DNA of 24,000 nt from Streptomyces hesseae (GTDB taxonomy: Bacteria > Actinomycetota > Actinomycetes > Streptomycetales > Streptomycetaceae): assembly GCF_031845785.1 (NCBI RefSeq), contig NZ_JAVRFI010000002.1, positions 276,388 through 300,387 on the forward strand. The letters are read 5' to 3'. A model generated the notes under the pieces. The model worked only from the letters and a program-made list of their open reading frames with translations. It was not told the DNA's origin and did not search any database. Below are positions 1 to 18,801 of this stretch, in pieces. A program made the position numbers and the translations under genes. The number at the start of each line of letters is the position of its first letter. Positions within the stretch are counted from its first letter, which is position 1.

Positions 1-1796
1 GATACTTCACGGTCCGGCTCGCGGACTTCCCGAGCGCGTACGGCACGTCCTGTCTCACGCGCGTCGAGGAGGCGGTGAAGCCACTGCGCGCCGACGGCCT
101 CACCGTCGAGTACGGAAGTCCGCTCGGAGAGCTGGCGCGTCCCCCGGGAAACGACCGGTTGTCGGAGCTGATCGGTCTCGTGACCGCGGTGGCCGTGCTG
201 ATCCTGGGCTTCGGCAGTATCGCGGCGGCCGCGATACCTCTCGTCACCTCGATGCTGGCACTGCTCGTCGGGCTCAGCTCGCTCGGCCTGCTCGCCAACG
301 CGTTCACCTTCGCCACACCGTCCCCGACGGTGGCCACCATGATGGGCCTCGGTGCCGGGCTGGACTACACGCTCTTCCTGACCACACGCCACCGCCGAGT
401 GCTGCGTGGGACCAGTGACCCGGTCGAAGCCGCCGGGGCCGCGATGGCCACCGGCGGACATGCCGTACTGATCGCCGTCGCGGCCGTGATCCTGGCGCTG
501 ACCGGTCTGTGCCTCTCCGGCACCGGCTTCATCGCCACGCTCGCGGTCGCTGCCGGAATCACCGTACTGGTGGCCGCCGCTGCCTCGCTCACCCTCGCCC
601 CGGCCCTGTTCGGGCTGCTCGGCCGGAACATCGACCGTTTCCGCCTCGGCCGTCCCGTCGACGAGGCCACCGGCACTGCGGACCTCTGGTACCGATGGTC
701 CCGCGCCCTCGGCCGGCACCCGTGCCGTTTCCTCGCCATCGGTGTCCTCGCGGTGGGGACGCTGAGCATCCCGCTCGCGTCCGTGCGCCTGGGTCACATC
801 GACGCCGGTTCCACACCCGGCCGTTACACCGACAGACGCGCCTACGAGCTCATCGCGAAGAACTTCGGTCCCGGCGCCAACGGCCCGCTGACCGTCGTCG
901 TCGAACTCCGCCCCGCCCGGACCGGCGCGGAACCGAGTCCGTCTGCCGACTCCCTCTCCGCAGCCCTGATACGGACCCCGGGTGTCGCGGCGGTCAGCAC
1001 GCCGGCGCCCACCGCCGACCGCACCCTCCTCATCGCGACCGTCACTCCGGAGCACGGCCCCCAGGACCGCAGAACCGCCGACCTGCTCCACCGCCTCGAC
1101 CGCACCGTCCTGCCCAAAGCCCTCGCAGGCACCGGAGCACGCGGTTACATCACCGGCCTCACCGCCGCCCGGCTCACCTTCGCCGACGTGCTGCTCGGGA
1201 ACCTGCCCACGATCATCGCCTTCGTGACCGGCACGGCCTTCCTCCTGCTCCTCGTCACCTTCCGCGGTCTGCTCGTCGCGGCGAAAGCCGCCCTCCTCAA
1301 CCTGTTCTCCATCGGCGCGGCCCTCGGAGTGGTCGTCGCCGTCTTCCAGGAGGGCTGGGGCGGCTCCCTCGTCGGCATCACCGAGCCCGTCCCCATCGAG
1401 CCCTACGTACCGGTCCTGGTGCTCACCATCGTCTTCGGACTGTCCATGGACTACGAGATCTTCCTGATCGTCCGCATCCGTGAAACCTGGCTTCGCACCG
1501 GGGACAACCACGAGAGCGTCGCCACCGGCCTCGCGGCCACCGCTCGCGTCATCACGAGCGCCGCGGTAATCATGACCAGTGTCTTCCTCGCCTTCCTGCT
1601 CAGCACCGACGTCGTCATCAAAATGATCGCCCTGGGCCTGGGCGCCAGCGTGATCATCGACGCCACGCTCATGCGCCTGCTCCTCGTGCCGGCCACCATG
1701 CACCTGCTCGGGAACGCCAACTGGTGGCTCCCGGACCTCCTACGGAGGAGAAGCGGTCTTGGGGACCGTCGGTACAACCGTCGGCGCCGAGATTGA
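1..1796 (+). CDS. MMPL-family (RND superfamily) membrane transporter; 5' end lies outside the window
   Basis: The frame is open from nt 3 with no stop before the listed ORF 75..1796, so the gene is cut by the window edge. Two multi-helix hydrophobic blocks are separated by a ~180-aa soluble loop. Paired motifs GLGAGLDYTLFL and GLSMDYEIFLIVRIRE are typical of MMPL/RND membrane domains. Strong GC3 bias. Confidence 0.85.
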   Translation, partial: YFTVRLADFPSAYGTSCLTRVEEAVKPLRADGLTVEYGSPLGELARPPGNDRLSELIGLVTAVAVLILGFGSIAAAAIPLVTSMLALLVGLSSLGLLANAFTFATPSPTVATMMGLGAGLDYTLFLTTRHRRVLRGTSDPVEAAGAAMATGGHAVLIAVAAVILALTGLCLSGTGFIATLAVAAGITVLVAAAASLTLAPALFGLLGRNIDRFRLGRPVDEATGTADLWYRWSRALGRHPCRFLAIGVLAVGTLSIPLASVRLGHIDAGSTPGRYTDRRAYELIAKNFGPGANGPLTVVVELRPARTGAEPSPSADSLSAALIRTPGVAAVSTPAPTADRTLLIATVTPEHGPQDRRTADLLHRLDRTVLPKALAGTGARGYITGLTAARLTFADVLLGNLPTIIAFVTGTAFLLLLVTFRGLLVAAKAALLNLFSIGAALGVVVAVFQEGWGGSLVGITEPVPIEPYVPVLVLTIVFGLSMDYEIFLIVRIRETWLRTGDNHESVATGLAATARVITSAAVIMTSVFLAFLLSTDVVIKMIALGLGASVIIDATLMRLLLVPATMHLLGNANWWLPDLLRRRSGLGDRRYNRRRRD

Positions 1797-1841: not shown

Positions 1842-1877
1842 ACCAGCCTCGGCGTAGAGACCCTCTCACCACTTTCA

Positions 1878-1937
1878 GGTGATTGCCGCCGATTGTCGTG
1901 ATGGGGTGATTTTCCGCCGCTACGGTGATCGGGTCAT
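1878..1937 (+). promoter_or_regulatory. Imperfect ~27-bp tandem direct repeat (GGTGAT-bounded) upstream of the decarboxylase operon; candidate operator
   Basis: GGTGATTGCCGCCGATTGTCGTGATGG (1878-1904) is followed directly by GGTGATTTTCCGCCGCTACGGTGATCG (1905-1931) and a third partial unit GGTCAT. GTGAT/GTCAT pentamers start at 1879, 1898, 1906, 1925 and 1933 (spacing 19, 8, 19, 8). The repeat sits 25-90 nt upstream of the start at 1962/1968. Confidence 0.35.
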
Positions 1938-1961: not shown

Positions 1962-3389
1962 GTGGGTATGGAGCTGGGGTACTGGCTCGGGCGGGGAGCC
2001 GAGGCTTTCCGGGAATGGGCGCGAACGTACGACGAGTTCGCGGCGCATACCGCGATGGCGGTCGACGAAGCGGCCTGTGAGGTGGCATTCGAGGAGCTGA
2101 CCGCCCGGCTGCGCGGCAGTTACCCCTTCTTCCACCCCTGCTACGCGGGGCAGATACTCAAGCCGCCGCACCCGGTGGCGGTCGCCGGCTATGCGGCCGC
2201 CATGCTGGTCAACTCCAACAACCACGCGCTGGACGGCGGTCCGGCGACCTCCGCCATGGAGGAGGAGGTGGTGGAGCAGCTCGCGCAGATGGCCGGTTTC
2301 GCGGCCCACCTCGGGCACCTGACCAGCAGCGGCACCCAGGCCAACCTCGAAGCCTTGTTCGTCGCCCGTGAGGCCCGTCCCGGCACGGGGGTCGCCGTCA
2401 GCGCCGAGGCGCACTACACCCACGCCCGGATGTGCCATCTGCTGGGCGTCCCCGTGTACACGGTGCCGGTGGACGATCGTGGGCGCATGGACATGGCCGG
2501 GCTGGAGCGGCTGCTGTCCACCGGGGTCGCCGGCACGGTCGTCGCCACCACGGGCACGACGGCGCTGGGTGCCGTCGATCCACTGCACCGCATCGTCCCG
2601 CTGGCGCGCCGGTACGGGGTGCGCGTCCATGCCGACGCCGCTTATGGCGGCTTCTTCCGGCTACTGGCCGACGGAAGAACCGACAAGGAGCAGGCGCCCG
2701 TCGCGCCGGAGACCGGGGACGCCCTGCGGGCGATCGCGCAGTGCGATTCGGTGGTGATCGATCCGCACAAGCACGGTCTGCAGCCGTACGGTTGTGGAGC
2801 GGTGTTGTTCGGGGACCCGGACGTCGCCCGGTTCTTCCGGCATGACTCGCCCTACACCTACTTCACCTCCCGCAGACCTCATCTGGGGGAGATCAGCCTC
2901 GAATGCTCCCGCTCCGGCGCGGCCGCCGCCGCTCTGTGGCTGACGCTGAAGCTGCTGCCGCTCACCCCTGACGGGCTCGGGGCGGTGCTCGCCGCCGGGC
3001 GACGGGCCGCCGTCCGCTGGGCCGGGCTGATCGGCGCCTCTCCGTACCTGGATCCGTACCAGCCTCCCGAGCTCGACATCGTGACGTACTACCCGGCCGC
3101 TCCGGGGAGTTCGCCACCTCGCCTGTCCCATGTCGGCAGGGCGAGCGATGAGGTGCTGCACCGGGGGATGAACGCCAAGGAGGACCCCGTCTTCCTCAGC
3201 GTCGCCCGTGTCACCGCCGGCGCGTTCACCGCCCGCCACGCCGACGCCGTCGCGGACAGCGACAACACCCACGTATTGCGCAGCGTGCTGATGAAACCGG
3301 AGAGCGAGCTGTATCTCGACCGCCTCCACCAGCGGGTGGAGCAGCTGGCCAAGGCATCGTGGCCCGCTCCTCGGAGGTGCGGCCGATGA
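1962..3389 (+). CDS. Group II pyridoxal-phosphate-dependent decarboxylase (MfnA / tyrosine-decarboxylase-like)
   Basis: Motifs present: HPCYAGQILKPPHP, NSNNHALDGGPATSAMEEEV, HLTSSGTQANLEAL, TGTTALGAVDP, HADAAYGG. The Schiff-base lysine motif is VIDPHKHGLQPYGCG (Lys codon 2769-2771). Start is GTG 1962 or ATG 1968. The stop overlaps the next start (ATGA at 3386-3389). Confidence 0.85.
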   Translation: MGMELGYWLGRGAEAFREWARTYDEFAAHTAMAVDEAACEVAFEELTARLRGSYPFFHPCYAGQILKPPHPVAVAGYAAAMLVNSNNHALDGGPATSAMEEEVVEQLAQMAGFAAHLGHLTSSGTQANLEALFVAREARPGTGVAVSAEAHYTHARMCHLLGVPVYTVPVDDRGRMDMAGLERLLSTGVAGTVVATTGTTALGAVDPLHRIVPLARRYGVRVHADAAYGGFFRLLADGRTDKEQAPVAPETGDALRAIAQCDSVVIDPHKHGLQPYGCGAVLFGDPDVARFFRHDSPYTYFTSRRPHLGEISLECSRSGAAAAALWLTLKLLPLTPDGLGAVLAAGRRAAVRWAGLIGASPYLDPYQPPELDIVTYYPAAPGSSPPRLSHVGRASDEVLHRGMNAKEDPVFLSVARVTAGAFTARHADAVADSDNTHVLRSVLMKPESELYLDRLHQRVEQLAKASWPAPRRCGR

Positions 3390-4213
3390 ACAGCGAGACG
3401 CCGCCGACGCCTCTGACCCTGGCCACCGACTCGCGCGTCCCCGTGCGGGCGGCGGCCGTTGCCACGACCGCCGATTACGACCGCTACTTCCACATCGCGC
3501 GTCAAGCGCCGGACCTGACGTCCTGGACATACGACATGCTCCGGCTCCAGACAGCCGTCCTCGCCGACCTTCCGCACACCGGTCTGGACGACTCCCAGCG
3601 TGCCGCCGTCCTGACCGGTCTGTTGCACGCCTCCCACGCCACGCTGGCCGCGTGGCTGCGGTCCACGCCGGGATCCGTACCGGACGGGCCCGCCGACGGC
3701 CCGTACGGCGCACTGCGCCGCTGGAAACTCGGCCATCAGCTCTTCCATCTCCTGCTGACCACCATGAACAGCGCCCTCGACGACATCTTGGCCGCAGTGG
3801 GCGCGGCACGGTGGGCGTCCGTCCGCCACGGCCTGGAGCGGTTGCGGACGCTGTACGACGCGGCCACCGCCGCCATGGCCTACGCCTCGGACTTCCCCGC
3901 CTCCGTCTACGCGAACGACGTACGGCCCACGATGGAGCCGCCGTTCGCCGCACCGGGCTTCTCCGGAACGCTCAATCAGGAGCACCACGTCATGACCGAA
4001 CGGACGCGCGCCCTCAGGACCGCGCTCGGAAACCTGTCGGCGCCGACGCCCCTCCTCGCCGTGATCCGTCACGAGGAGACCCTGCTGCGGGCGGCACAGC
4101 GACGGAACCGGAAGGCGCACGCGGCGATCTGCGAGCGCTGCGTGCCGGACGGCGCCTCGCTCCTGTCGCGGCACACCACCCGGCAGAGGAGCGACCGTGC
4201 GACATGTGAGTGA
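3386..4213 (+). CDS. Hypothetical protein with no confidently recognised family; tentative resemblance to the tryptophan 2,3-dioxygenase / haem-dependent aromatic oxygenase superfamily
   Basis: ATG 3386 overlaps the upstream stop (ATGA). GC3-biased 275-aa ORF, largely helical in composition. Motifs occur in TDO order: GHQLFHLLL (His117), SVYANDVRPTMEPPFAAPGFSG (Tyr175, Arg180), RRNRKAHAAICERCVPDGAS (His245). The family assignment comes from recalled motifs only. Confidence 0.7.
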   Translation: MNSETPPTPLTLATDSRVPVRAAAVATTADYDRYFHIARQAPDLTSWTYDMLRLQTAVLADLPHTGLDDSQRAAVLTGLLHASHATLAAWLRSTPGSVPDGPADGPYGALRRWKLGHQLFHLLLTTMNSALDDILAAVGAARWASVRHGLERLRTLYDAATAAMAYASDFPASVYANDVRPTMEPPFAAPGFSGTLNQEHHVMTERTRALRTALGNLSAPTPLLAVIRHEETLLRAAQRRNRKAHAAICERCVPDGASLLSRHTTRQRSDRATCE

Positions 4214-7001
4214 GTGGACGATCCCTGCGTCACGGGCCGTGGGGGACGTCGAGGGCATCGACGCACGGACCGGCCTGCGGCTGCTGGCCGGCCTGGTCGA
4301 CGAGGTCGTGTGGCTCGACCACTGCCCCGCCGTGAGCGCCTCGTTCCAGCCGGCGCCCGCCTGGCTCCACCACGAACCGGTCTCCGCCTGGGAGCCCTTG
4401 CCGGAACCCCCGCCCGGCCAGCAGCCGTGCCCGCCCGACCCACGCCGTGTCTGTGTGTCCTTCGCTCCCGAGCACGGGGACAACGCCCGCACCTGGGCCC
4501 GTACGCACGGCTACCGGCTGCTGGCCCCGGACGCCGGTGTCACGGCGTGGGCCGCCGACAAGATCAGCGCCACCCGGCTGTTCGCCGAGGCCGGGGTCCC
4601 CGTCCCGCCCTTCCTGGTGATCCCCGCGTCAGGCCGCGAGCCGGCGGAGGCGTACTGGAGCGGCCGGTGGGAGCGGGCCGTCGCCCAGCGGGCGGAGAAC
4701 AACCTCATCGGCCGCGGGACCGTCCTCGTCGACGGGCCGCCGGGCCTGCGGGCCTGCCTGGACTCCTGGCGGGGCGAACCCGTCAAGCTCAGCCGCTTCG
4801 CTCCCGGGATCTCCCTGACCGTCACCGCGTGCGCCGGGCCGGACCGGACCGTCGTCTCGGCGGTCTCCCACCAGCTCGTCGGGCTGCCCGAGCTGGCCGC
4901 CTCCTGGGGCGCGCACTGCGGCAACCAGCTCGTCGGCCCGGACGACCTGCCCGAGGGGCTGTACGGGCAGGCCCGAGCGGCCGCGTACCAGGTGGGCGAG
5001 GTCCTGCGGGGACGTGGTTTCCGCGGTGTCTTCGGCCTGGACCTGGTGGAGGAGGACGGCCGGCTGCTGGCCGTGGAGGTCAATCCACGCTTCCAGACGG
5101 TGGTGTCCCTGGTCCAGGCCGCCGAGGGCGCGGCGGGCCTTCTGCCGTCCCTGGGCCTGCACGTCCTGTCCTTCCTCCTTCCCGCCCTGCCCCCTCCGGC
5201 GGCCGGACCGCTGCCGCCCGGCCCGCGCCACAGTCAGCTCGTGGTGCATGCCCGTACGGACGCCGTGGTGCGCCGCCCGCCCCCGACGGGGCGCTACCGC
5301 AGGGACGGGCGCGCGGTGACGGGACCGCTTCCCGGGCCGCCCGTGGTGTCCCGGCTGGCCGACGACGAGGTCCTGTGGTGGGCCGTCGCCCGTTCCGGTC
5401 CGGTCATCGCGGGCGAGGAGCTGGCGCTCGTCCAGTTCCCGCGGCCGGTCGCGGGGCTGCGGCCCCGTCCGCGACTGCGGCCCGGCGCCTCGGCCTGGCT
5501 TGCGGCCCTCGCCCCGGACACGGGGCAGGAGGGATCGCACACCGAGGACGAGCCTCCCCCACTGCGGCTGGACGAACGGCGGATGCGCGAGGCGGGCCGC
5601 CACGCCGTCGAACTCGTCATCGACCGGATGACCACCCCCGGCTCCCGGCCGCCCTGCCACGTCCCCTCACCCGGCGCTCTCAGGGCCGCCCTCGACGAGC
5701 CCCTCCCCGAGCACGGTACCCACGACCTGCCCGGCCTCCTCGACCACGTCACCGAGCGCGCACTCGCCGAGGCGACCCGGCTGGACCACCCGCGCTGCTT
5801 CGCCTTCGTGCCCTCCACCGGCAACTTCCCCGCCGTGCTCGCCGACGCGCTGGCCTCCGCGTACCTCTCCGTCCCCGGCGCCTGGCTCGTCGGAGCGGGC
5901 CCCACCCAGATCGAACTGACCACCCTGCGCTGGCTGAAGACGTTCCTGGGCCTCCCGGACGGCCACGGCGGCCTGTTCGTCAGCGGCGGGTCCGTGGCCA
6001 ACCTGACCTGTCTGGCCGTCGCCCGCGACCACCGCCTCGACGGCCGGCCGCAGCCGCACGCCCGGCTGTACTGCTCCTCCCAGGCTCACCCTTCCGTCGC
6101 ACAGGCGGCGCACCTCCTGGGCCTCACCCGCGAACAGCTCGCCGTCCTGCCTCCGGACGACGACCTGCGCCTGGACGCCGACGTCCTGGCCGAGCGCGTC
6201 GGCCGTGACCGCCGCGCGGGACTGCGCCCCTTCGCCGTCGTCGCCACGCTCGGCACGACCGGCACCGGGGCCGTCGACCCGCTCGGCCGTCTGGCCGATC
6301 TGTGCCAGGAGGAAGGCCTGTGGCTGCATGTCGACGGCGCCCATGGCGCGGCCGTCGCCGGCGCCCCACGCGGTCACCATCTGCGGGACGCCCTCGGCCG
6401 GGCCGACTCCCTCACCGTCGATCCGCACAAATGGCTGTTCCAGCCCTATGAGATCGGCTGTGTCCTGCTACGGCGCCCCGAACTGCTTTCCGAGACCTTC
6501 GGTGTGGCGCGCCACGCCTTGGACCAGGGGTATCTCCGAGCGGCCCATCCGGCCGCCCCGGCATGCGAGGAGGTCAACCTCTCCGACTACGGCCCGCAGC
6601 AGAGCCGCGGTCTGCGCGCCCTGAAGCTCTGGCTCTCCCTGAAGACCTTCGGCGCCGGAGCCTTCCGTCAGGCCATCGAGCGGGGAGCGGACCTCGCCGA
6701 GTACGCCGCCGGACTCGTCGAGGCCCACCCCGAGCTTGAGCTGGTCACGCCGCCCGGTCTCGCCATCCTCACCTTCCGCTACCGGCCCCGGGACGCGCCC
6801 GCGACATGGGACGCCGACGCGGCGCAGGCACACATCAGCCGGAGGGTGTGCGCCGACGGCGGAGCCGTCCTCCTCACCACCACGGTCCGGGGAGCCACCG
6901 TGCTCCGCATGTGCACCATCAACCCCACCAGCACCCGTGCCGACGCCGCGTACGTGCTGGACCTGGTCACCCGCTACGGCCGCGACGACATCGGCCCCTG
7001 A
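4197..7001 (+). CDS. Fusion protein: N-terminal ATP-grasp carboxylate-amine ligase domain plus C-terminal group II PLP-dependent decarboxylase domain
   Basis: GTG 4197 (or GTG 4206) lies inside the last 17 nt of the upstream gene, whose stop is at 4211-4213. ATP-grasp signatures fall around aa 115-300 (AADKISATRLFAEAGVPVPPF, GVFGLDLVEEDGRLLAVEVNPRFQ). A Pro/Arg-rich linker covers ~aa 416-458. Decarboxylase signatures: FVSGGSVANLTCLAVAR, ATLGTTGTGAVDP, HVDGAHGA, TVDPHKWLFQPYEIGC (Lys745, codon 6429-6431). One uninterrupted 934-aa frame. Confidence 0.85.
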   Translation: MRHVSEWTIPASRAVGDVEGIDARTGLRLLAGLVDEVVWLDHCPAVSASFQPAPAWLHHEPVSAWEPLPEPPPGQQPCPPDPRRVCVSFAPEHGDNARTWARTHGYRLLAPDAGVTAWAADKISATRLFAEAGVPVPPFLVIPASGREPAEAYWSGRWERAVAQRAENNLIGRGTVLVDGPPGLRACLDSWRGEPVKLSRFAPGISLTVTACAGPDRTVVSAVSHQLVGLPELAASWGAHCGNQLVGPDDLPEGLYGQARAAAYQVGEVLRGRGFRGVFGLDLVEEDGRLLAVEVNPRFQTVVSLVQAAEGAAGLLPSLGLHVLSFLLPALPPPAAGPLPPGPRHSQLVVHARTDAVVRRPPPTGRYRRDGRAVTGPLPGPPVVSRLADDEVLWWAVARSGPVIAGEELALVQFPRPVAGLRPRPRLRPGASAWLAALAPDTGQEGSHTEDEPPPLRLDERRMREAGRHAVELVIDRMTTPGSRPPCHVPSPGALRAALDEPLPEHGTHDLPGLLDHVTERALAEATRLDHPRCFAFVPSTGNFPAVLADALASAYLSVPGAWLVGAGPTQIELTTLRWLKTFLGLPDGHGGLFVSGGSVANLTCLAVARDHRLDGRPQPHARLYCSSQAHPSVAQAAHLLGLTREQLAVLPPDDDLRLDADVLAERVGRDRRAGLRPFAVVATLGTTGTGAVDPLGRLADLCQEEGLWLHVDGAHGAAVAGAPRGHHLRDALGRADSLTVDPHKWLFQPYEIGCVLLRRPELLSETFGVARHALDQGYLRAAHPAAPACEEVNLSDYGPQQSRGLRALKLWLSLKTFGAGAFRQAIERGADLAEYAAGLVEAHPELELVTPPGLAILTFRYRPRDAPATWDADAAQAHISRRVCADGGAVLLTTTVRGATVLRMCTINPTSTRADAAYVLDLVTRYGRDDIGP

Positions 7002-7013
7002 GTGGCCGCCCGG

Positions 7014-7556
7014 TCAGACGATCACCAGCTCCGACGGCCCGGTGATCAGCTCCACCCCGTCCTTCGACGCGCACTTCAGCGGATCGAGCGCGACCTGAAG
7101 CCCCGGCGAGGCCACCGTCCGCCCCTTGAACTTCCCCTCCACCACCCGGCCCACGATCAGTACGACCGCCTGCCCGGCCACCTGCTGTACGTTCCCCAAG
7201 TGGTACACGACCGTCGTCCGCTCCCCGGTGTTCCAGGTGATCCGCTCGGCGGTGGTCGCCTCGGAGAAGAAGCAGCCGTTCCACCCGCCGCCGCTGATCG
7301 AGGACTCCCCCGACCGCAGCGCCGGGTCCGTGGAAAGACATCTGTACGCACCGCTGCCGCCGATCCGGGTCCGTTGCGCCGCCAGCGACAGACCGGGTGA
7401 GAACGTGATGGTGTTGTTCCCCGCGCAGCTCACGGCAGCACGCGATGCGTGTGCCGAAGGGTGTGCCGAAGCGTCGGGCGCCGCGTTCACCAGCGCGGCC
7501 AGCGACGCCGCCACCACACACCCGAGCCTCCTGCCCCATGACAACCGTCCGCCCAT
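7014..7556 (-). CDS. Secreted four-cysteine protein of unknown function (paralogue of 11589..12194)
   Basis: I chose the internal ATG at 7556 of listed ORF 7014..8036. The longer form would overlap the MFS gene and is Arg/Pro-rich. GGGAGGGG lies ~11 nt upstream. Signal peptide MGGRLSWGRRLGCVVAASLAALVNAAPDASA. The mature part is beta-rich with 4 Cys (SCAG, RCLSTD, GCFF, KCAS). Confidence 0.7.
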   Translation of the reverse strand: MGGRLSWGRRLGCVVAASLAALVNAAPDASAHPSAHASRAAVSCAGNNTITFSPGLSLAAQRTRIGGSGAYRCLSTDPALRSGESSISGGGWNGCFFSEATTAERITWNTGERTTVVYHLGNVQQVAGQAVVLIVGRVVEGKFKGRTVASPGLQVALDPLKCASKDGVELITGPSELVIV

Positions 7557-7618
7557 GTCTGCCCAACCCCTCCCGTAAAGCCACCGCGTACCGACGGCGG
7601 CATCCTTTCGTTCCATCC

Positions 7619-9091
7619 TCAAACCTGTCCGGCGCACGACCGTTGTCTCCTCCGTTCGTGTCGCCGACCGGTAAGCGTGAAAGCCATGGCAGCGGTGAGC
7701 AAACCCAGTAGGCAAAGAGCCGGTTGGGTACCCAGCGGCGTGCCGAGCGCGTCGCAGATCGATGCCCCGCAGCCGCGGGGAGGATGCCCAACCAGGGTGA
7801 GTGCGGCTCCTGCCACCGCCGGCCCCGTCGCGCCACCGAGCATGGCGAACGTTGTCGCCGTCGCCGCCGCTTGCGCGGTGCGGTGTGACGCGTGGTCGCG
7901 GCTGACGACGGTCATGGCAGAGCCGTTGGTCAGGCCCAGGCCGCATCCCACGAAGGCGCATGCGCCGCTGAGCAACCACAGGGGCGTGGGGTGCCGATGT
8001 CCACAGCCGCTGAGGAGCACACCGGCCGCGACGCACAGAAGCCCGGTACGCATGAGGCGTGAGCCGTCACACTGTTCACCGGTCCGCCGGGCGGCCAGGC
8101 GCGCGGTGAGAACGGCGGGGACCACGGCCGGCAGGGCGACGACCGCCGCCGAGAGCGGGCTCAGACCGTTTGCGCGGGTGAGAGTGAAGTAAGTGAGGAA
8201 CGTGAAGGCGGAGTTCGCGCCGAAGAGCGCCAGCAGGACGAGCAGCGCTCGGCGCGTGACGGCCTGCCGCAGCAACCCGGCGTCCAAAGTGCCCTGAGGG
8301 TCACGTCGCGTTCGGAGGGTGAGAAGACCGATCAGTGTGACGGTCAGCAGCGCGGTCGCCGCCTGTGCCGGTGCGGAAGCGGTGACCGCCGGAGCGGTCA
8401 GCGTGATCAGCGCGGTGATGGCGGCCGCGGTGCACAAGGTGATTCCGGCGATGTCCATGGGCTGCCGAGGCGACGTCGCCGAGGGTCCGGGTTCGCCGAG
8501 TGCGTGAAGGGCGCAGCCCGCACTGGCGGTCGCGAGAAGAGTGAGGGCGCCGAAGGCCGCCCGCCAGTCCACCAGGCTGGTGAGCAGACCGCCCAGTACC
8601 GGCCCGAGGCAGGAGGCCGCGGCGGCGGTGGAGACCCACCCCGCAACGGCATGCGGCTCGTTTCCCGTTCTCCGGCGCAGGGTGAGCAGAAGGGCGAGGC
8701 TGACGGGCGAGAGAGCGGCACCGCCGATGCCCTGGAGCAGTCGAGCGGCGATGAGGACGGCGGCGGTGGTGGCCGCGGTGGCCAGCAGGCTCGCGGCGGC
8801 GAAGGTGGACAGGGCGACGAGCAGGATACGGCGCGCACCGTACTGGTCGGCGAAGTGGCTCACCCCGAGTTGCAGAGGGCCACAGGTGAGTTGATATGCG
8901 GCGGCGAACCACTGGGTCTGGACGGGCTCCATCTCCAGGTCGGCCGCGACCGCGGGCACGGCCGCCGTGACCGAGGCGATGGCGAGCGCCCCGCAGAGCA
9001 GCGCCGCATAGCAGGCGATGGGGGCGAGGCGCGGTACGCGGCCGGGCGTCGCTGTCCAGGCCCGGCGGTCGTCCGGCAGTCCGGGGCTCAC
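7619..9091 (-). CDS. MFS transporter, drug:H+ antiporter type (about 14 TMS, DHA2-like)
   Basis: Hydrophobic throughout. MFS motif A-like FADQYGARRILLVAL and antiporter motif C-like LGPVLGGLL are present. The preferred start GTG 9091 overlaps the upstream stop as GTGA (9088-9091). The listed ATG 9121 is an alternative. Confidence 0.85.
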   Translation of the reverse strand: MSPGLPDDRRAWTATPGRVPRLAPIACYAALLCGALAIASVTAAVPAVAADLEMEPVQTQWFAAAYQLTCGPLQLGVSHFADQYGARRILLVALSTFAAASLLATAATTAAVLIAARLLQGIGGAALSPVSLALLLTLRRRTGNEPHAVAGWVSTAAAASCLGPVLGGLLTSLVDWRAAFGALTLLATASAGCALHALGEPGPSATSPRQPMDIAGITLCTAAAITALITLTAPAVTASAPAQAATALLTVTLIGLLTLRTRRDPQGTLDAGLLRQAVTRRALLVLLALFGANSAFTFLTYFTLTRANGLSPLSAAVVALPAVVPAVLTARLAARRTGEQCDGSRLMRTGLLCVAAGVLLSGCGHRHPTPLWLLSGACAFVGCGLGLTNGSAMTVVSRDHASHRTAQAAATATTFAMLGGATGPAVAGAALTLVGHPPRGCGASICDALGTPLGTQPALCLLGLLTAAMAFTLTGRRHERRRQRSCAGQV

Positions 9092-10503
9092 AGGTAGTGC
9101 CCGTCCGGTCCTACGATGCATGGCTGCCGCCAGGCCGCGGACCGAACGGTGACCATGGGGAACGTGATGCCGGGTGCTCGAGCGTCCGGTGTGCCACGGG
9201 CGGGGGTCAGGTGCACATGATGGCCTGTCCTGAGGGCCTCGAACAGCCTTCTGGGGGCGGTGGTCGCCGTGACCAGTAGTGGCACATCAGGGGCTGCCGC
9301 GCCGCTCCGGATGCGCGTGCCGCGCCGCGCGGCGTTCCCCGGCAGGCCGGCCAGGCGCGCGGCAAGACGTCGTCGCGGGAGGGGTGGGCTAAGGGCGGTG
9401 AGGACGGTGGCGCGCAGTGCGTGGCCCCAGGGCGAGGGCAGCGCGTTGAAGTGGAGCATGGCGGCGGTGAGCCGCATGACGTGGGCGGCGGAGCGACGTC
9501 GTTCCTCGGCGTAGGCGTCCAGCAGTACCCCGTGGTGAGGCTCGGTGACCGCTGCCGCGAGGCGCCACCCCAGGCTCATGGCGTCGGCCAGGCCGGTGTT
9601 GAGGCCCTGGCCGCCGGTGGGTGGGTGGACGTGGGCGGCGTCGCCCGCCAGTACGACGCGGTGACGCCGGTACCGGGCGGCGTGGCGGTGCTCGCAGCGA
9701 TAGCGGCTGAGCCACTCGATCTCGCGCAGCGCGAGCTCGCGGCCCGTGATCCGGCACAGCAGCTCCTGCACCCAGGCCGCGTCGCGGGCGTCGTTCTGTG
9801 TGTCGTAGGCCTCAAGGCGACGGTAGGGGTAGAGGACGACGCGCCAGCGTCCGTCGCCGAACGGCAGGAGCAGCACCATGCCGTCCGGCCCCCAGTGGCT
9901 CCACGGCTGTTGCGGCTCGAAGTCGAGCCGCGCGTCGACCGAGATGACGTCATAGGGGTGCACGGTGCGTGACGCGGCTATGCCCGACAGCCGGCGCACG
10001 GTACTCCGGGCGCCGTCGCACCCGGCGATGTAGGCAGCGCATATCCGCCGCACACGCCCCGAACTCCGGACGGTCAGCTCGGCACTTCCCTCGTGCTGCC
10101 GCATTCCGACGACTTCCGTCCCGCGCGCGATGAGTGCGCCGTTCTTGAGGGCGTACTCCTCCAACAGCGCTGTGGTCCGGTGCTGGGGCAGAGCGAGCGC
10201 ATACGGAAAGGAACTGTCCAGCGCGGAGAAAGGCGCGATTGACCTGTCAGAACCCAGGGGATAGTGCCAGTAGCGATGACCGTGGGCGACAAATGGCTCG
10301 GCGATTCCGCGCATGTCGAAAAATTCCAGGGTCCGGGAATGCAGCACAAGCGCACGTGTCGCTTGCGGCGGCCGGACATCCCGTTCGAGCACGACGCAGC
10401 CGATACCCCGAAGGCCCAGTTCCCCGGCCAACTGCAGACCGACGGGCCCGCCTCCGACCACGGCGACCTGAACCTCATCGGGCAAGGCCGCGACGTCGGT
10501 CAT
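9088..10503 (-). CDS. FAD-dependent aromatic-ring monooxygenase (class A flavoprotein hydroxylase, PheA/TfdB-like)
   Basis: Motifs: VAVVGGGPVGLQLAGELGLRGIGCVVLER (GxGxxG), GCDGARSTVRR, VLAGDAAHVHPPTGGQGLNTGLADAMSLGWRLA. ATG at 10503 with GAAGGA ~10 nt upstream. Confidence 0.9.
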   Translation of the reverse strand: MTDVAALPDEVQVAVVGGGPVGLQLAGELGLRGIGCVVLERDVRPPQATRALVLHSRTLEFFDMRGIAEPFVAHGHRYWHYPLGSDRSIAPFSALDSSFPYALALPQHRTTALLEEYALKNGALIARGTEVVGMRQHEGSAELTVRSSGRVRRICAAYIAGCDGARSTVRRLSGIAASRTVHPYDVISVDARLDFEPQQPWSHWGPDGMVLLLPFGDGRWRVVLYPYRRLEAYDTQNDARDAAWVQELLCRITGRELALREIEWLSRYRCEHRHAARYRRHRVVLAGDAAHVHPPTGGQGLNTGLADAMSLGWRLAAAVTEPHHGVLLDAYAEERRRSAAHVMRLTAAMLHFNALPSPWGHALRATVLTALSPPLPRRRLAARLAGLPGNAARRGTRIRSGAAAPDVPLLVTATTAPRRLFEALRTGHHVHLTPARGTPDARAPGITFPMVTVRSAAWRQPCIVGPDGHYL

Positions 10504-10709
10504 ACGGTGAATTCCTTCGTCCGTCCTCCCGTTGACCGGTCCAGGCTGACACCCTGCACCGTACGTGTCCAGACCGGCTTGGCCCGCCCGGCGAGATCAC
10601 GGCCCATAGGATTTTCATAATTACATGTGGCCCGTTGACCATCCGAGTGGCTCCTGCCAAGGTGACCGCGGCACGTTCGCGCACTCCTCGTCCAGCCGAA
10701 CGGAGAACG
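10504..10709. promoter_or_regulatory. Divergent intergenic control region between the monooxygenase and uricase-fold operons
   Basis: A 206-bp gap between divergent starts. CCGTTGACC occurs twice (10529-10537 and 10632-10640), and TTGACC resembles a -35 hexamer. The only AT-rich patch nearby is ATAGGATTTTCATAATTACATGT (10606-10628). No confident -10 element was identified. Confidence 0.4.
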
Positions 10710-11561
10710 ATGGGCCATTCCATCGGCGATCACGCGTACGGCGAATGCGGAATCGAATTCCTCCTCGTGGACCGGTCCGGGCCGCAGCAGCGGGTACGCC
10801 GGTTCCGGGCGGACGTCCGCCTGCTGATGGACCACCCCGAGGTCTACCGGGACGGTGACAACACCCGCCTGGTCCCGGTGAGTTCGATCAGCAACTCCGT
10901 ACTGGCCCTCGGTGCCCGGCACACGGCGTCGGAGCCCGAAACCTATGCGCTCGCGCTTGCCGAGCGCTTCCTCACCGCGACCACGCGCGTCCGGAGCGCC
11001 GATGTGCGCCTGACCGCCTCCGGGTTCACCCCGCTCCCGTCCGACCGGCCGGCGTCCGTGGCCCAGCACTTCTCCGCACTCCCCCGCCACCAGGATCACG
11101 CTCACCTCACGCTCCCGCGCCATGGCGAACCCGTCCTCCGCAGCGGCCTGTTGAACATGGAACTCTTCGCGACCGGCGGCGCGACGTTCACGGGCTTCGC
11201 CCGCGACGCCTACACCACCACGCAGACCTTCACCGACCGGGTCTTCGGTGCCCGGTTCAACGTGACCTGGCGGCACTCCGGAACGGACACCGATCACGGC
11301 CAGAGCCGTGCCCGCGCCGAACAGGCCGTCGTCGAGGCCTTCAGCGAGCACACCAGCCGCTCCAGTCAGCACACCTTCCACCACCTGGGCGCCGCCGTGC
11401 TGGACGCCTGCCCCGAAGTCGCGGAGGTCCGAGTGGAGGGGACCCACCTGACCCGCGGCCTGGTGGACCTGACCCCCTTCGGAGTCGGCAACGAAGGCTG
11501 CGTCTACACAGCGGCGGACCACCAGCAGAGCACCGTCACCGTCGACATTCACCGCATCTGA
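10710..11561 (+). CDS. Uricase-fold (T-fold, urate-oxidase-like) protein with non-canonical active-site residues
   Basis: Internal ATG 10710 of listed ORF 10635..11561, with GGAG 4 nt upstream. Collinear with uricases as I recall them: YGECGIEF vs YGKxxVR, GDNTRLVPVSSISNSV vs xDNSxxVATDSIKNT, GFARDAYTTTQTFTDRV vs GFLRDEYTTLxETxDRI, VDLTPFG...VYTAADH vs the C-terminal block. Confidence 0.75.
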   Translation: MGHSIGDHAYGECGIEFLLVDRSGPQQRVRRFRADVRLLMDHPEVYRDGDNTRLVPVSSISNSVLALGARHTASEPETYALALAERFLTATTRVRSADVRLTASGFTPLPSDRPASVAQHFSALPRHQDHAHLTLPRHGEPVLRSGLLNMELFATGGATFTGFARDAYTTTQTFTDRVFGARFNVTWRHSGTDTDHGQSRARAEQAVVEAFSEHTSRSSQHTFHHLGAAVLDACPEVAEVRVEGTHLTRGLVDLTPFGVGNEGCVYTAADHQQSTVTVDIHRI

Positions 11562-11588
11562 GAACGAGGGACCGAGGAAGGGGACCGC

Positions 11589-12194
11589 GTGAACACCACA
11601 GGATCGCGCAAAGCCCGCAGGCTCGCCGTGACGGTCACCGTCATGGCGGCGGCGCTCACGCCCACAACGCAGACGGCACATGCCGACGACCAGCCGGCCG
11701 GCTCTCTCCTGGTGTGCGCCGGCACCGTCGCCGCCTCCTACGCGCCGGGGCTGACCTTCGCGCCGAGAGCCACCTCCGTCACGTCCCGGGCGGTCGTCGG
11801 ATGCCCTCTCTCGACGGACGGCAGGTTCGCCTCCGCGACCTTCGGCGGAGACTCCGCCGGCATCTTGTCCTGCCTCCTGGGGCCCGCGAGCGGCACCCTT
11901 ACGTTCCACTGGGGCGACAACAAGGGAAGGGGGAAAGCATCCCCCCACCACCACGGCAGCCCCGGCGGCCCCGGCGACACGACGTCGACCGCCTCGATCC
12001 ATAGCCTGGCAGCCGTACGCCCGAACGGAAACATCGTCACCGTGAGCACGGGAACCATCACCGACGGCGCCTTCAAGGGGGCGGCAGTCGTCACCGAGGT
12101 GACCCTGCTCGCTTCCCGGCAAGCCGCCTGCCTGACCCCCCGGGGCCTCGCCTCCGCCTCCGGCCCCACCACCGTGACCATTACCCGGGTCTGA
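11589..12194 (+). CDS. Secreted four-cysteine protein of unknown function (paralogue of 7014..7556)
   Basis: GTG 11589 is preceded by GAGGAAGGGG. Signal peptide MNTTGSRKARRLAVTVTVMAAALTPTTQTAHA. It aligns with the 7014..7556 product (VCAG/SCAG, YAPGLT/FSPGLS, GCPLSTD/RCLSTD, G-FKG, ACLTPRG/KCASKDG, GPT/GPS). It carries an extra Gly/His-rich insert, NKGRGKASPHHHGSPGGPGD. Confidence 0.75.
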   Translation: MNTTGSRKARRLAVTVTVMAAALTPTTQTAHADDQPAGSLLVCAGTVAASYAPGLTFAPRATSVTSRAVVGCPLSTDGRFASATFGGDSAGILSCLLGPASGTLTFHWGDNKGRGKASPHHHGSPGGPGDTTSTASIHSLAAVRPNGNIVTVSTGTITDGAFKGAAVVTEVTLLASRQAACLTPRGLASASGPTTVTITRV

Positions 12195-17320: not shown

Positions 17321-17544
17321 GCCACCGCGGCCATGATCGGCGACGAGCGCGCCGCCACCGCCATCTCCCGTATTTCCGTGTCTCCTTCCGCATCGCGGCG
17401 GCGGCCTTCCTGCCGTCGACACAGCGACGCAGGGCAGCGCGACCAAGGCCCTGAACGGAAGATCGCCGCAAACCCCCTCCATTGCGTCGCGCTCTCGCAT
17501 GCCCTCGTTTCACGAGATTCACCACAAGGGAGTTGTTCATTCTC

Positions 17545-18801
17545 ATGTACAAACGTCGGAGATTTCTCACCTTCGCCACTGCGGGGGCAGTCATATGCAC
17601 CGCCGGATTCATCCCGTCGGTCAGCCAGGCCGCCAACAGCGGCGACAGTGAAGAGAAGGGGTCCTACGCCGAAACGCACGGACTGACGGCGGATGACGTC
17701 AAGAACATCAACGCACTCAACGAAAGCGCCCTGGCTCTGGGGCAACCCGGCAAGCCTCCGGGGGAATGGCCTCCGAGCGCCGGCCCGTCCTCCCGGACCC
17801 CCGGCTCCACCGACGACAGGGAAACCCCTCCGGCCGAGCCGCTCGAAAGGATGCCTGATGCGTACCGGGCCTACGGAGGAAGGGCCACTACGGTCATCAA
17901 CAACTACATACGCAAGTGGCAGCAGGTCTACAGTCATCGAGGCGGCAAGAAGCAGCAGATGACCGAAGAGCAGCGAGAAAAGCTGTCCTACGGTTGCGTC
18001 GGCGTCACCTGGGTAAATTCGGGCCCCTACCCGATGAACAAATTGGCGTTTGCGTTCTTCGACGAGAACAAGTACAGGAACGACCTCAAAAACACCAGCC
18101 CCCGACCCGATGAAACGCAGGCAGAGTTCCAGGGTCGCATCGCCAAGGACAGTTTCGACGAGGGGAAGGGTTTCAAGCGGGCGCGTGATGTGGCGTCCAT
18201 CATGAACAAGGCCCTGGAAAGTGCCCACGACGAGGGGACGTACATCGACAACCTCAAGACGGGGCTCACGAACAGCAATGACGCTCTGCTCCACGATGAC
18301 AGCCGCTCGAACTTCTACTCGGCACTGAGAAACACACCGTCCTTCAAAGAAAGAGACGGGGGCGACTACGACCCGTCCAAGATGAAGGCGGTGATCTACT
18401 CGAAGCACTTCTGGAGCGGGCAGGACCAGCGGGGCCCCTCCGACAGGAGGAAGTACGGCGATCCGGAAGCCTTCCGTCCCGACCAGGGTACCGGCCTGGT
18501 CGACATGTCGAAGGACAGAAGCATCCCGCGCAGTCCCGCCAACTCTGGCGAAAGTTGGGTCAATTTCGACTACGGCTGGTTCGGGGCTCAGACGGAAGCG
18601 GACGCCGACAGGACGGTATGGACCCACGGCGACCACTATCACGCGCCCAACAGTGGCCTGGGCCCCATGCACGTATACGAGAGCAAGTTCCGGAACTGGT
18701 CTGCCGGGTACGCCGACTTCGACCGCGGAACCTACATGATCACGTTCATACCCAAGAGCTGGAACACCGCCCCCGCCAAGGTGCAGCAAGGCTGGCCGTA
18801 A
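17545..18801 (+). CDS. Microbial transglutaminase pre-pro-enzyme (protein-glutamine gamma-glutamyltransferase, Streptomyces mobaraensis MTG type)
   Basis: Near-collinear with the S. mobaraensis MTG sequence as I recall it: PPAEPL.RMPD, NNYIRKWQQVYSHR, QQMTEEQRE.LSYGCVGVTWVNSG (catalytic Cys151, codon 17995-17997), YSALRNTPSFKER, MKAVIYSKHFWSGQD, VNFDYGWFGAQTEADAD.TVWTHG.HYHAP (Asp and His of the triad), MHVYESKFRNWS, ITFIPKSWNTAP.KV.QGWP at the C-terminus. Start is ATG 17545, with signal peptide MYKRRRFLTFATAGAVICTAGFIPSVSQA. Confidence 0.95.
   Translation: MYKRRRFLTFATAGAVICTAGFIPSVSQAANSGDSEEKGSYAETHGLTADDVKNINALNESALALGQPGKPPGEWPPSAGPSSRTPGSTDDRETPPAEPLERMPDAYRAYGGRATTVINNYIRKWQQVYSHRGGKKQQMTEEQREKLSYGCVGVTWVNSGPYPMNKLAFAFFDENKYRNDLKNTSPRPDETQAEFQGRIAKDSFDEGKGFKRARDVASIMNKALESAHDEGTYIDNLKTGLTNSNDALLHDDSRSNFYSALRNTPSFKERDGGDYDPSKMKAVIYSKHFWSGQDQRGPSDRRKYGDPEAFRPDQGTGLVDMSKDRSIPRSPANSGESWVNFDYGWFGAQTEADADRTVWTHGDHYHAPNSGLGPMHVYESKFRNWSAGYADFDRGTYMITFIPKSWNTAPAKVQQGWP

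Follow-up and report, generated by a model that had tools for sequence, protein, structure and literature searches.

Introduction

The MfnA and MfnD enzymes of methanofuran biosynthesis make gamma-glutamyl-tyramine: a group II pyridoxal 5'-phosphate (PLP) decarboxylase yields an arylamine, which an ATP-grasp ligase acylates with an amino acid. Here, we describe a cassette from Streptomyces hesseae, found in a stretch of 24,000 nucleotides (contig NZ_JAVRFI010000002.1, positions 276,388 to 300,387 of the forward strand; hereafter the window), in which two group II PLP decarboxylases, a predicted haem-dependent hydroxylase, an ATP-grasp domain, and a small exported protein are encoded side by side. 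We read this cassette as a conserved and self-contained small-molecule pathway, independent of nonribosomal peptide synthetases (NRPSs) and made of two modules and an exported protein, and we tentatively propose that it leads from tyrosine through DOPA (3,4-dihydroxyphenylalanine) to dopamine and then, by ATP-grasp acylation with Glu or Asp and decarboxylation, to an aminoacyl-dopamine. An earlier note on this DNA had invoked MfnA and MfnD as precedent; the analogy stands for the logic of the pathway but not for family membership, as the equivalog cut-offs are missed. Indeed, the ATP-grasp domain of the cassette is of another subfamily, the decarboxylase encoded by gene 1 scores 125.6 against the MfnA cut-off of 299.4 (TIGR03812), and Pfam and NCBIfam profile searches of the window returned neither an MfnD-type ligase nor mfn-like genes. 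Moreover, the host is an actinomycete without methanofuran-dependent metabolism, and its cassette goes beyond the MfnA/MfnD pair in having a haem hydroxylase, a ligase-fused second decarboxylase, and an exported protein.

Ligation through the side chain of Glu or Asp, followed by PLP-dependent alpha-decarboxylation into a gamma-aminobutyrate (GABA) or beta-alanine unit, is known from the pairs BtrJ/BtrK (butirosin), CtaD/CtaF (closthioamide), and FlvN/FlvO (fluvirucin) (PMC11350588). In these systems, however, the acceptor is an acyl carrier protein, and no carrier-protein gene is found among the four conserved genes of the cassette or elsewhere in the window. Furthermore, BtrJ/BtrK-type decarboxylases belong to group IV (fold type III) (PMC11350588), whereas the decarboxylase of gene 3 belongs to group II (fold type I). 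Carnosine synthase, itself an ATP-grasp enzyme, and GADL1/aspartate decarboxylase offer a further comparison, in that a group II decarboxylase supplies the beta-alanine whose carboxylate is then ligated to an amine (PMC7367687). Yet this system is eukaryotic, its two enzymes are unfused and its acceptor is histidine, and we detected no specific sequence relationship of the cassette to it.

With regard to hydroxylation, SfmD (saframycin) and TyrH/LmbB2 (lincomycin, pyrrolobenzodiazepines) share the PF27188 family with gene 2, which has the H-xn-H-xxx-C haem motif of SfmD; SfmD binds haem through this motif by means of His274, His313, and the thioether-linked Cys317 (PMC8179489). Gene 2 differs from them by an identity of only about 25–30%, by the spacing of the motif (n of 44 vs. 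about 38 in SfmD), by a clade marked by adjacency to decarboxylases rather than to NRPS or DOPA-dioxygenase genes, and possibly by its substrate, which could be tyramine instead of an amino acid. Finally, insect cuticle tanning relies on tyrosine hydroxylase, DOPA decarboxylase, aspartate decarboxylase (“black”), Ebony (N-beta-alanyl-dopamine synthase), and arylalkylamine N-acetyltransferase. The chemistry predicted for the cassette would resemble this scheme (tyrosine to DOPA to dopamine, then N-acylation), and both kinds of acyl groups would find a parallel, acetyl in a variant from Kitasatospora that carries a GNAT acetyltransferase and a decarboxylated acidic amino acid in the variant that carries gene 3. 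The likeness would nonetheless be one of chemistry, since the enzymes are unrelated: haem stands in the cassette where the insect hydroxylase uses a pterin, and an ATP-grasp domain where insects have the NRPS-like Ebony. Our literature searches returned no paper on this cassette and no characterized member of it, nor did we find a characterized pathway that it matches. On the whole, we rate it as a variation on known biosynthetic logic (MfnA/MfnD, BtrJ/BtrK) and not as a new kind of system.

Results

A Conserved and Translationally Coupled Cassette

The three overlapping genes of the + strand form one translationally coupled unit, as the earlier note had proposed (table 1). The first junction is an ATGA at 3386-3389 with GGAGG 8 nt upstream; at the second, GTG 4197 is preceded at 5 nt by GAGGAG and lies 17 nt inside gene 2 (stop at 4211-4213), GTG 4206 being likewise in frame for gene 3. 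The products of genes 2 and 3 are 100% identical to annotated S. hesseae proteins, and the identical proteins of the public annotation start at ATG 3386 for gene 2 (275 aa) and at GTG 4197 for gene 3 (934 aa). For gene 1, ATG 1968 is a likelier start than GTG 1962, because the 13 orthologues out of 13 all use the equivalent ATG (...ATGGAG). The three + strand genes are backed by third-position GC (GC3 frame analysis), and purifying selection was detected on all five coding units when the two halves of gene 3 are counted separately (dN/dS 0.17-0.66).

Gene 1, gene 2, the gene 3 fusion, and a small convergent gene occur in a fixed order in 14 Streptoverticillium-type species with otherwise unrelated flanks, as established by gene calling and blastp clustering (tblastx gave mostly high-GC noise). 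The recurrence of this order, overlaps included, in 14 species-level genomes with unrelated flanks places the three-gene arrangement beyond chance and answers positively the question, left for checking by the earlier note, of whether these genes co-occur elsewhere. The unit of three genes that it described has, nevertheless, to be enlarged to four, as the small exported protein encoded at 7014-7556 (-) is the fourth conserved member of the cassette. Its statement that there is no NRPS, polyketide synthase (PKS), or regulator was upheld. As for the 7014-12194 region, with or without which it had suggested expressing the operon, the gene for the small exported protein does belong to the cassette, whereas the MFS, FAD-monooxygenase, and uricase-like genes are not conserved: together with the MMPL gene, they are kept only in the two closest relatives, and we rejected all four as pathway members.

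Upstream of gene 1, an element conserved among the 14 orthologous upstream regions accompanies the cassette across unrelated genomic contexts. It contains an invariant TTCRGGT, a CTAnGGT about 46 nt downstream (including a -10-like TAnGGT), and three GGTGAT(T/C) direct repeats; conservation begins abruptly at TTCAGGT, beyond which the sequences are unrelated between genomes. This element is probably a promoter combined with a regulator-binding site or operator. A scan of the window for sigma-70 consensus sequences and terminators and an Rfam search found nothing.

Genes 1 and 2, a Predicted Tyrosine-to-Dopamine Module

Gene 2 had previously been described as an orphan, haem-oxygenase-like protein that could be placed in no family. 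Both parts of this description proved wrong, as its sequence assigns it to the SfmD/TyrH family of haem-dependent tyrosine hydroxylases, within the tryptophan dioxygenase (TDO) superfamily. A precomputed PF27188 (SfmD_perox) assignment exists for the database entry of the identical protein and for each of the 72 homologues; searches of local Pfam and NCBIfam copies, the former without the PF27188 model, gave no match at E <= 0.01. When compared with solved structures, the single sequence matches SfmD at 1e-8 and TyrH, a haem-dependent tyrosine hydroxylase, at 4e-5, and a 28-sequence profile searched against the PDB recovers SfmD (1.2e-18), TyrH (2e-13), and an L-tyrosine 3-hydroxylase (2e-11), with the next match at E = 0.23. 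The haem motif H200...H245-x3-C249 aligns with His274, His313, and Cys317 of SfmD; H200 and H245 are invariant among 28 homologues and C249 is conserved in at least 90% of them. An identity as haem oxygenase or haem-oxygenase-like di-iron oxidase was rejected, as no such profile (Heme_oxygenase, Haem_oxygenas_2) or structure matched and the solved-structure matches with E below 0.2 are only of the SfmD/TyrH type. By contrast, Trp_dioxygenase, which the earlier note had listed merely as a profile to check, turned out to point to the right superfamily. We also observed that residues 25-66 of gene 2 (window 3386-3600, the N-terminal DYDRYF helix region of the family) align with the C-terminal region 231-271 of TyrH, which suggests a permuted arrangement between the two subfamilies. 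The dN/dS of gene 2 is 0.34-0.66.

Gene 1 is a member of PF00282 (79.8 bits for a gathering threshold of 27, E 2e-22), with its PLP Schiff-base lysine, K270, in the DPHK motif at 267-270 and a dN/dS of 0.22-0.31. Its best NCBIfam matches are MfnA, at the score given above, and the enterococcal tyrosine decarboxylase TyrDC (TIGR03811, 122.2 vs. 905.3), both under their equivalog cut-offs, and its closest solved relatives are the tyrosine decarboxylases of L. brevis and E. faecalis (5hsi and 7cwx; about 1e-30). It is invariably found 5' of gene 2 with a 4-nt overlap, including in S. profundus, Amycolatopsis, and Kitasatospora, where the two genes form an overlapping pair without gene 3.

Scanning genomes with the gene 2 profile gave 61 loci. 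Among the 49 loci with a gene 2 relative of at least 35% identity, 44 carry a group II decarboxylase within 6 kb; the 11 SfmD-like loci that are more distant have none in that range. A GNAT acetyltransferase directly follows the gene 1/gene 2 pair in Kitasatospora, and methyltransferases lie near it in S. profundus; both kinds of neighbors are typical of amine tailoring. It is because this SfmD-like clade is repeatedly paired with tyrosine/DOPA-type decarboxylases and amine-tailoring genes that we read genes 1 and 2 as a module (hereafter module B) that would convert tyrosine into DOPA and then dopamine. In the window, gene 3 takes the position of the GNAT gene, on which ground we read it (hereafter module A) as a putative ATP-dependent device for N-acylation.

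In the largest other branch of gene 2 relatives, the decarboxylase is a canonical DOPA decarboxylase (7xin, 2e-96). There, one locus (L035, 8359-15786) and about 25 similar ones (L020-L053) harbor a different operon, centered on a short SfmD-like protein of about 175 aa and comprising an amine oxidase, the SfmD-like gene, a 110-aa unknown, an SDR, the DOPA decarboxylase, a class V aminotransferase, and an amino-acid permease. The amine oxidase, aminotransferase, SDR, and permease of this branch would fit a catabolic or stress-related function, that is, tyrosine/tyramine degradation or acid resistance through decarboxylation. We nonetheless hold such a function to be very improbable for the cassette, which, in the window, comes without antiporter, amine oxidase, or aldehyde dehydrogenase, includes an ATP-consuming and hence anabolic ligase, and has a patchy, island-like distribution. 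A further observation on gene 2 comes from Streptomyces sp. CA-181903 (L074, 7741-8016), where it is cut to an in-frame remnant of 91 aa that keeps the N- and C-terminal ends and has lost the catalytic core, next to an intact gene 1, ATP-grasp gene, decarboxylase gene, and small-protein gene.

Gene 3, an ATP-Grasp Domain Fused to a Decarboxylase

The N-terminal half of gene 3 matches ATP-grasp_3 over residues 119-301 (30.8 bits for a cut-off of 23.2), and its AlphaFold2 (AF2) model, with a predicted local distance difference test (pLDDT) score of 90.9, displays the three-domain ATP-grasp fold. The domain is intact and keeps its Mg/ATP residues: D282 and R298 are invariant among 38 homologues, and K122, E294, and N296 are conserved in at least 90% of them. 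At the position of Lys159 of biotin carboxylase stands R165, a conservative change that is placed by motif alignment only. Foldseek matches the model to PurK, PurD, biotin carboxylase, and L-amino-acid ligases with a probability of 1.0, and to PurT as well; these matches are generic, at the level of the superfamily (template modeling [TM] score of about 0.55), and hold no clue to the substrate. The sole named relative in NCBIfam is the uncharacterized “biotin carboxylase” PRK06524 (66.6 for a cut-off of 684). The ATP-grasp half thus lies outside every characterized subfamily, in a subfamily of its own with 291 cluster representatives at E <= 1e-30, among which we found no characterized member. 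Its dN/dS is 0.24-0.53.

Given that PurK and biotin carboxylase are the best fold matches, that the E-x-N-x-R motif is as in biotin carboxylase, and that PRK06524 is the only NCBIfam relative, one may wonder whether the domain would rather work like these two enzymes and N-carboxylate the arylamine by carboxyphosphate chemistry, to give a carbamate or a urea. We consider this scarcely probable: the TM score is that of a generic match, PRK06524 falls far below its cut-off, and we know of no precedent for carboxyphosphate chemistry in amine metabolism.

The C-terminal half matches PF00282 along the whole profile (181.5 bits, E 3e-53, residues 492-863, profile positions 1-375 of 375), with its PLP lysine, K745, in DPHK at 742-745 and an SQAH(631)PSV motif conserved across the aligned homologues. 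The presence of two distinct group II PLP decarboxylases with the DPHK lysine, as announced by the earlier note, is thus confirmed. Among solved structures, this half comes closest to the tryptophan decarboxylase of R. gnavus (4obu, 5e-80), at an identity estimated by eye as roughly 40% over the aligned region, with DesA and a DOPA decarboxylase next. Likewise, its F-V-P-S substrate segment resembles that of aromatic decarboxylases, including a bacterial DOPA decarboxylase, and does not match F-N-Q-L, which we take to be the segment of Glu and cysteine-sulfinate decarboxylases. Scores remain under the equivalog cut-offs for both the diaminobutyrate (DABA) decarboxylase RhbB (198.2 vs. 900) and the aspartate decarboxylase PanP (141.6 vs. 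606.1), and the loop that carries the catalytic Tyr separating decarboxylases from aldehyde synthases aligns ambiguously with bacterial enzymes. With a dN/dS of 0.17-0.28, the decarboxylase half is the most constrained part of the cassette.

In an alignment of 12 homologues, large insertions and deletions are confined to the inter-domain linker, which is low in complexity and variable in length, and the split versions of gene 3 end and start at this linker. Many actinomycetes carry an ATP-grasp gene paired with a decarboxylase gene, of which gene 3 is a lineage-specific fusion. An ATP-grasp and a group II decarboxylase are adjacent, overlapping, or fused in all nine loci examined, each from a different lineage, and stand-alone ATP-grasp homologues always have the decarboxylase next downstream. 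The two genes are separate and overlapping in Streptomyces sp. CA-181903, in the same order as in S. hesseae and along with the 91-aa remnant of gene 2, and in S. viridosporus, along with an SfmD-like gene and a different decarboxylase. They are separate and accompanied by an orthologue of gene 1, without hydroxylase, in Nocardia and S. bohaiensis, whereas neither gene 1 nor gene 2 is present in Lentzea and Saccharothrix, where the pair is separate, or in Crossiella, where it is fused.

Outside actinomycetes, Paraburkholderia humisilvae carries the four enzymes on an island flanked by insertion sequences (IS) and adjoining katG: the ATP-grasp, the decarboxylase, an SfmD-like protein, and a gene 1-like decarboxylase are encoded beside the catalase-peroxidase gene katG (L073, 5023-13445). 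The transposase genes that flank this block suggest a horizontal transfer out of actinomycetes. We also noted an 893-aa protein (P0247) in which a distant ATP-grasp of the same family is fused to a threonine-synthase-like PLP domain (fold type II), which is a second, independent fusion between a PLP enzyme and an ATP-grasp.

The Small Exported Protein

The product of the convergent gene (alternative start at ATG 7616) is about 180 aa long, with an Arg-Arg signal peptide, which many copies of the family possess, four conserved Cys, and a predicted all-beta structure; its dN/dS is 0.29-0.58. It has no Pfam match, and a PDB profile search gave only marginal matches to Ig CH1 (E about 0.003), which hint at a beta-sandwich. 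The AF2 model, built from an alignment of the two window paralogues only, has a pLDDT of 32, too low for use. Known transglutaminase substrates (SSTI, SPI, DAIP) were considered as its identity and rejected, for the PDB profile search found none of them; this rejection supposes that SPI and DAIP have solved structures, as we presume.

A hidden Markov model (HMM) of the family matches 14 out of 14 loci of the clade at the position of this gene. It also finds a match beside the ATP-grasp and decarboxylase genes in Crossiella and Saccharothrix (as overlapping genes), Lentzea, Nocardia (weakly), and CA-181903, and beside genes 1 and 2 in Amycolatopsis and Kitasatospora (three copies), such that the family adjoins both enzyme modules in at least seven genera and is sometimes translationally coupled to them. 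None was found at the loci of S. bohaiensis, S. viridosporus, and Paraburkholderia. Besides the two in the window, members of the family lie at L068 9501-10004, L075 10774-11304, L072 7492-7995, and L004 14628-15041.

Some ATP-grasp enzymes, such as RimK, TTL, and LysX, ligate their substrates to protein carboxylates. In line with this, the ATP-grasp of the cassette might attach the arylamine to a carboxylate of the small protein before export, possibly by the Tat route, and thereby produce a catechol-tagged extracellular protein. The small protein is indeed the most widely shared partner of both modules, is translationally coupled in Crossiella and Saccharothrix, and often bears the Arg-Arg signal peptide. 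However, neither an invariant Asp or Glu nor a conserved C-terminal residue is found in its family, it is missing in S. bohaiensis, S. viridosporus, and Paraburkholderia, and the enzymes that the ATP-grasp matches in fold act on small molecules, so that we regard such a protein modification as improbable.

Neighboring Features of the Window

Besides the features listed in table 1, the region 9088-11561 encodes an FAD-dependent aromatic monooxygenase (rifampin-monooxygenase-like) and a uricase-like protein (147.9 bits for a cut-off of 168.4). Some 10.5 kb downstream of gene 3, a microbial transglutaminase gene (17482-18801, +; PF09017, E 1e-256) sits in a patch of lower GC (0.62-0.65). Microbial transglutaminase accepts primary amines, which it incorporates into proteins (PMC4757070). 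The proximity of this gene and this property are what raise the idea of a bacterial surface hardening akin to sclerotization. Under this reading, a catecholamide with a free primary amine, such as N-beta-alanyl-dopamine or N-(4-aminobutanoyl)-dopamine, would play the part of the cuticle-tanning agents of insects: once outside the cell, it would be covalently attached to the small protein or to the surface of the hyphae, with quinone tanning, the transglutaminase, or both as the means. We mention it as a speculation with a slim chance of being right as a whole.

Table 1. Position and supporting evidence of the cassette members and surrounding features within the window
Feature	Position	Strand	Evidence
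Truncated MMPL gene	3-1796	+	Third-position GC
Conserved upstream element, about 60 nt	1874-1935	+	Alignment of 14 orthologous upstream regions
Gene 1, group II PLP decarboxylase, TyrDC/MfnA-like type	1962/1968-3389	+	PF00282, DPHK
Gene 2, predicted SfmD-type haem-dependent aromatic (tyrosine) hydroxylase	3386-4213	+	PF27188, haem motif
Gene 3, N-terminal half, ATP-grasp carboxylate-amine ligase domain	4197-5531	+	ATP-grasp_3, AF2 model
Gene 3, inter-domain linker	5532-5621	+	Alignment of 12 homologues
Gene 3, C-terminal half, group II PLP decarboxylase	5622-7001	+	PF00282 full length
Small exported protein	7014-7556	-	Family HMM, third-position GC; convergent, directly 3' of gene 3
MFS gene	7619-9121	-	Third-position GC
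FAD monooxygenase gene	9088-10503	-	Third-position GC
Paralogue of the small exported protein	11589-12194	+	28% identity; conserved only in the two closest relatives

Discussion

From the domain identities, catalytic residues, gene coupling, and co-occurrence reported above, we infer the substrates, the order of the steps, the product, and the link of this product to the exported protein as follows. In module B, the gene 2 enzyme, a hydroxylase with a thioether-linked haem, would hydroxylate L-tyrosine (or tyramine) at C3 by means of H2O2, or of O2 plus a reductant, and the tyrosine-decarboxylase-like PLP enzyme of gene 1 would strip the carboxylate, so that the module would deliver dopamine, or tyramine where gene 2 is missing. 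In module A, the ATP-grasp half of gene 3 would form an acyl phosphate on the side-chain carboxylate of Glu or Asp, which the arylamine would attack to yield gamma-glutamyl- or beta-aspartyl-dopamine, and the fused PLP decarboxylase would then remove the remaining alpha-carboxylate, although ligation and alpha-decarboxylation could be reversed in order. The product would be an N-(omega-aminoacyl)-dopamine, namely N-(4-aminobutanoyl)-dopamine or N-beta-alanyl-dopamine, and its role would be tied to the small exported protein that is convergently encoded.

The succession from amino acid to amine to ATP-dependent amide had already been put forward in the earlier note, possibly for an oxidized aromatic amino acid, and it appears plausible in both respects. 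The case of Nocardia and S. bohaiensis, with their two decarboxylases, one ligase, and no hydroxylase, is instructive here: if primary metabolites alone are available to such a set, then an amide requires that a dicarboxylic amino acid be both ligated and decarboxylated. The ligate-then-decarboxylate logic of BtrJ/BtrK, CtaD/CtaF, and FlvN/FlvO would also explain why a ligase and a decarboxylase came to be fused in gene 3. The intact catalytic residues and the purifying selection on all genes count for the proposed pathway as well.

Several observations nevertheless weigh against it. The decarboxylase of gene 3 most resembles aromatic amino-acid decarboxylases rather than those acting on Asp or Glu, and a second arylamine may be all that it makes. 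Lentzea, Crossiella, and Saccharothrix possess module A but neither gene 1 nor gene 2, and dopamine therefore cannot be the universal substrate of this module. In its ATP-grasp domain, an Arg takes the place of Lys159 of biotin carboxylase. Within the cassette, constraint is weakest on gene 2, which is internally deleted in one lineage, no exporter is conserved with the cassette, the proposed pathway does not account for the role of the small exported protein, and the enzyme activities of all members are predicted from sequence.

The first two of these observations, an aromatic-like decarboxylase in gene 3 and the occurrence of module A without genes 1 and 2, make a scheme closer to that of MfnA and MfnD a serious rival, even if we judge it unlikely. 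In such a scheme, the decarboxylase of gene 3 would make the arylamine that its own ATP-grasp half ligates to a carboxylate, either one from Glu or, in the manner of L-amino-acid ligases, the alpha-carboxylate of a different amino acid. The acyl partner would then undergo no second decarboxylation, and genes 1 and 2 would provide a second, hydroxylated amine or an alternative substrate. The resemblance of this decarboxylase to the R. gnavus enzyme (about 40% identity) and its F-V-P-(S) pocket segment, common to aromatic decarboxylases, speak in favor of this scheme, as do the self-sufficiency of module A in three genera and the L-amino-acid ligases among the fold matches of the ATP-grasp. It would, however, make gene 1 redundant where the hydroxylase is missing (Nocardia, S. 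bohaiensis), it would need another donor of a carboxylate, since a single ligase cannot otherwise join two arylamines, and it finds no equivalog-level match to MfnA, while MfnD was not detected with NCBIfam. Protein modification, carboxyphosphate chemistry, and catabolism are, in our view, less likely than this MfnA/MfnD-like scheme.

If the proposed pathway from tyrosine to an aminoacyl-dopamine is right, then the pairing of a haem hydroxylase with a decarboxylase, present in dozens of actinomycete genomes, would constitute a bacterial tyrosine-to-dopamine route, when our literature searches turned up no dedicated route of this kind. Being compact (about 5.7 kb), self-contained, and NRPS-independent, the cassette should be easy to express, and a single in vitro reconstitution would annotate the whole ATP-grasp family to which gene 3 belongs. 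Finally, the recurrent association with an exported partner protein suggests that the product acts extracellularly, which may point to a new hyphal-surface biology in a clade that also makes the industrial transglutaminase.

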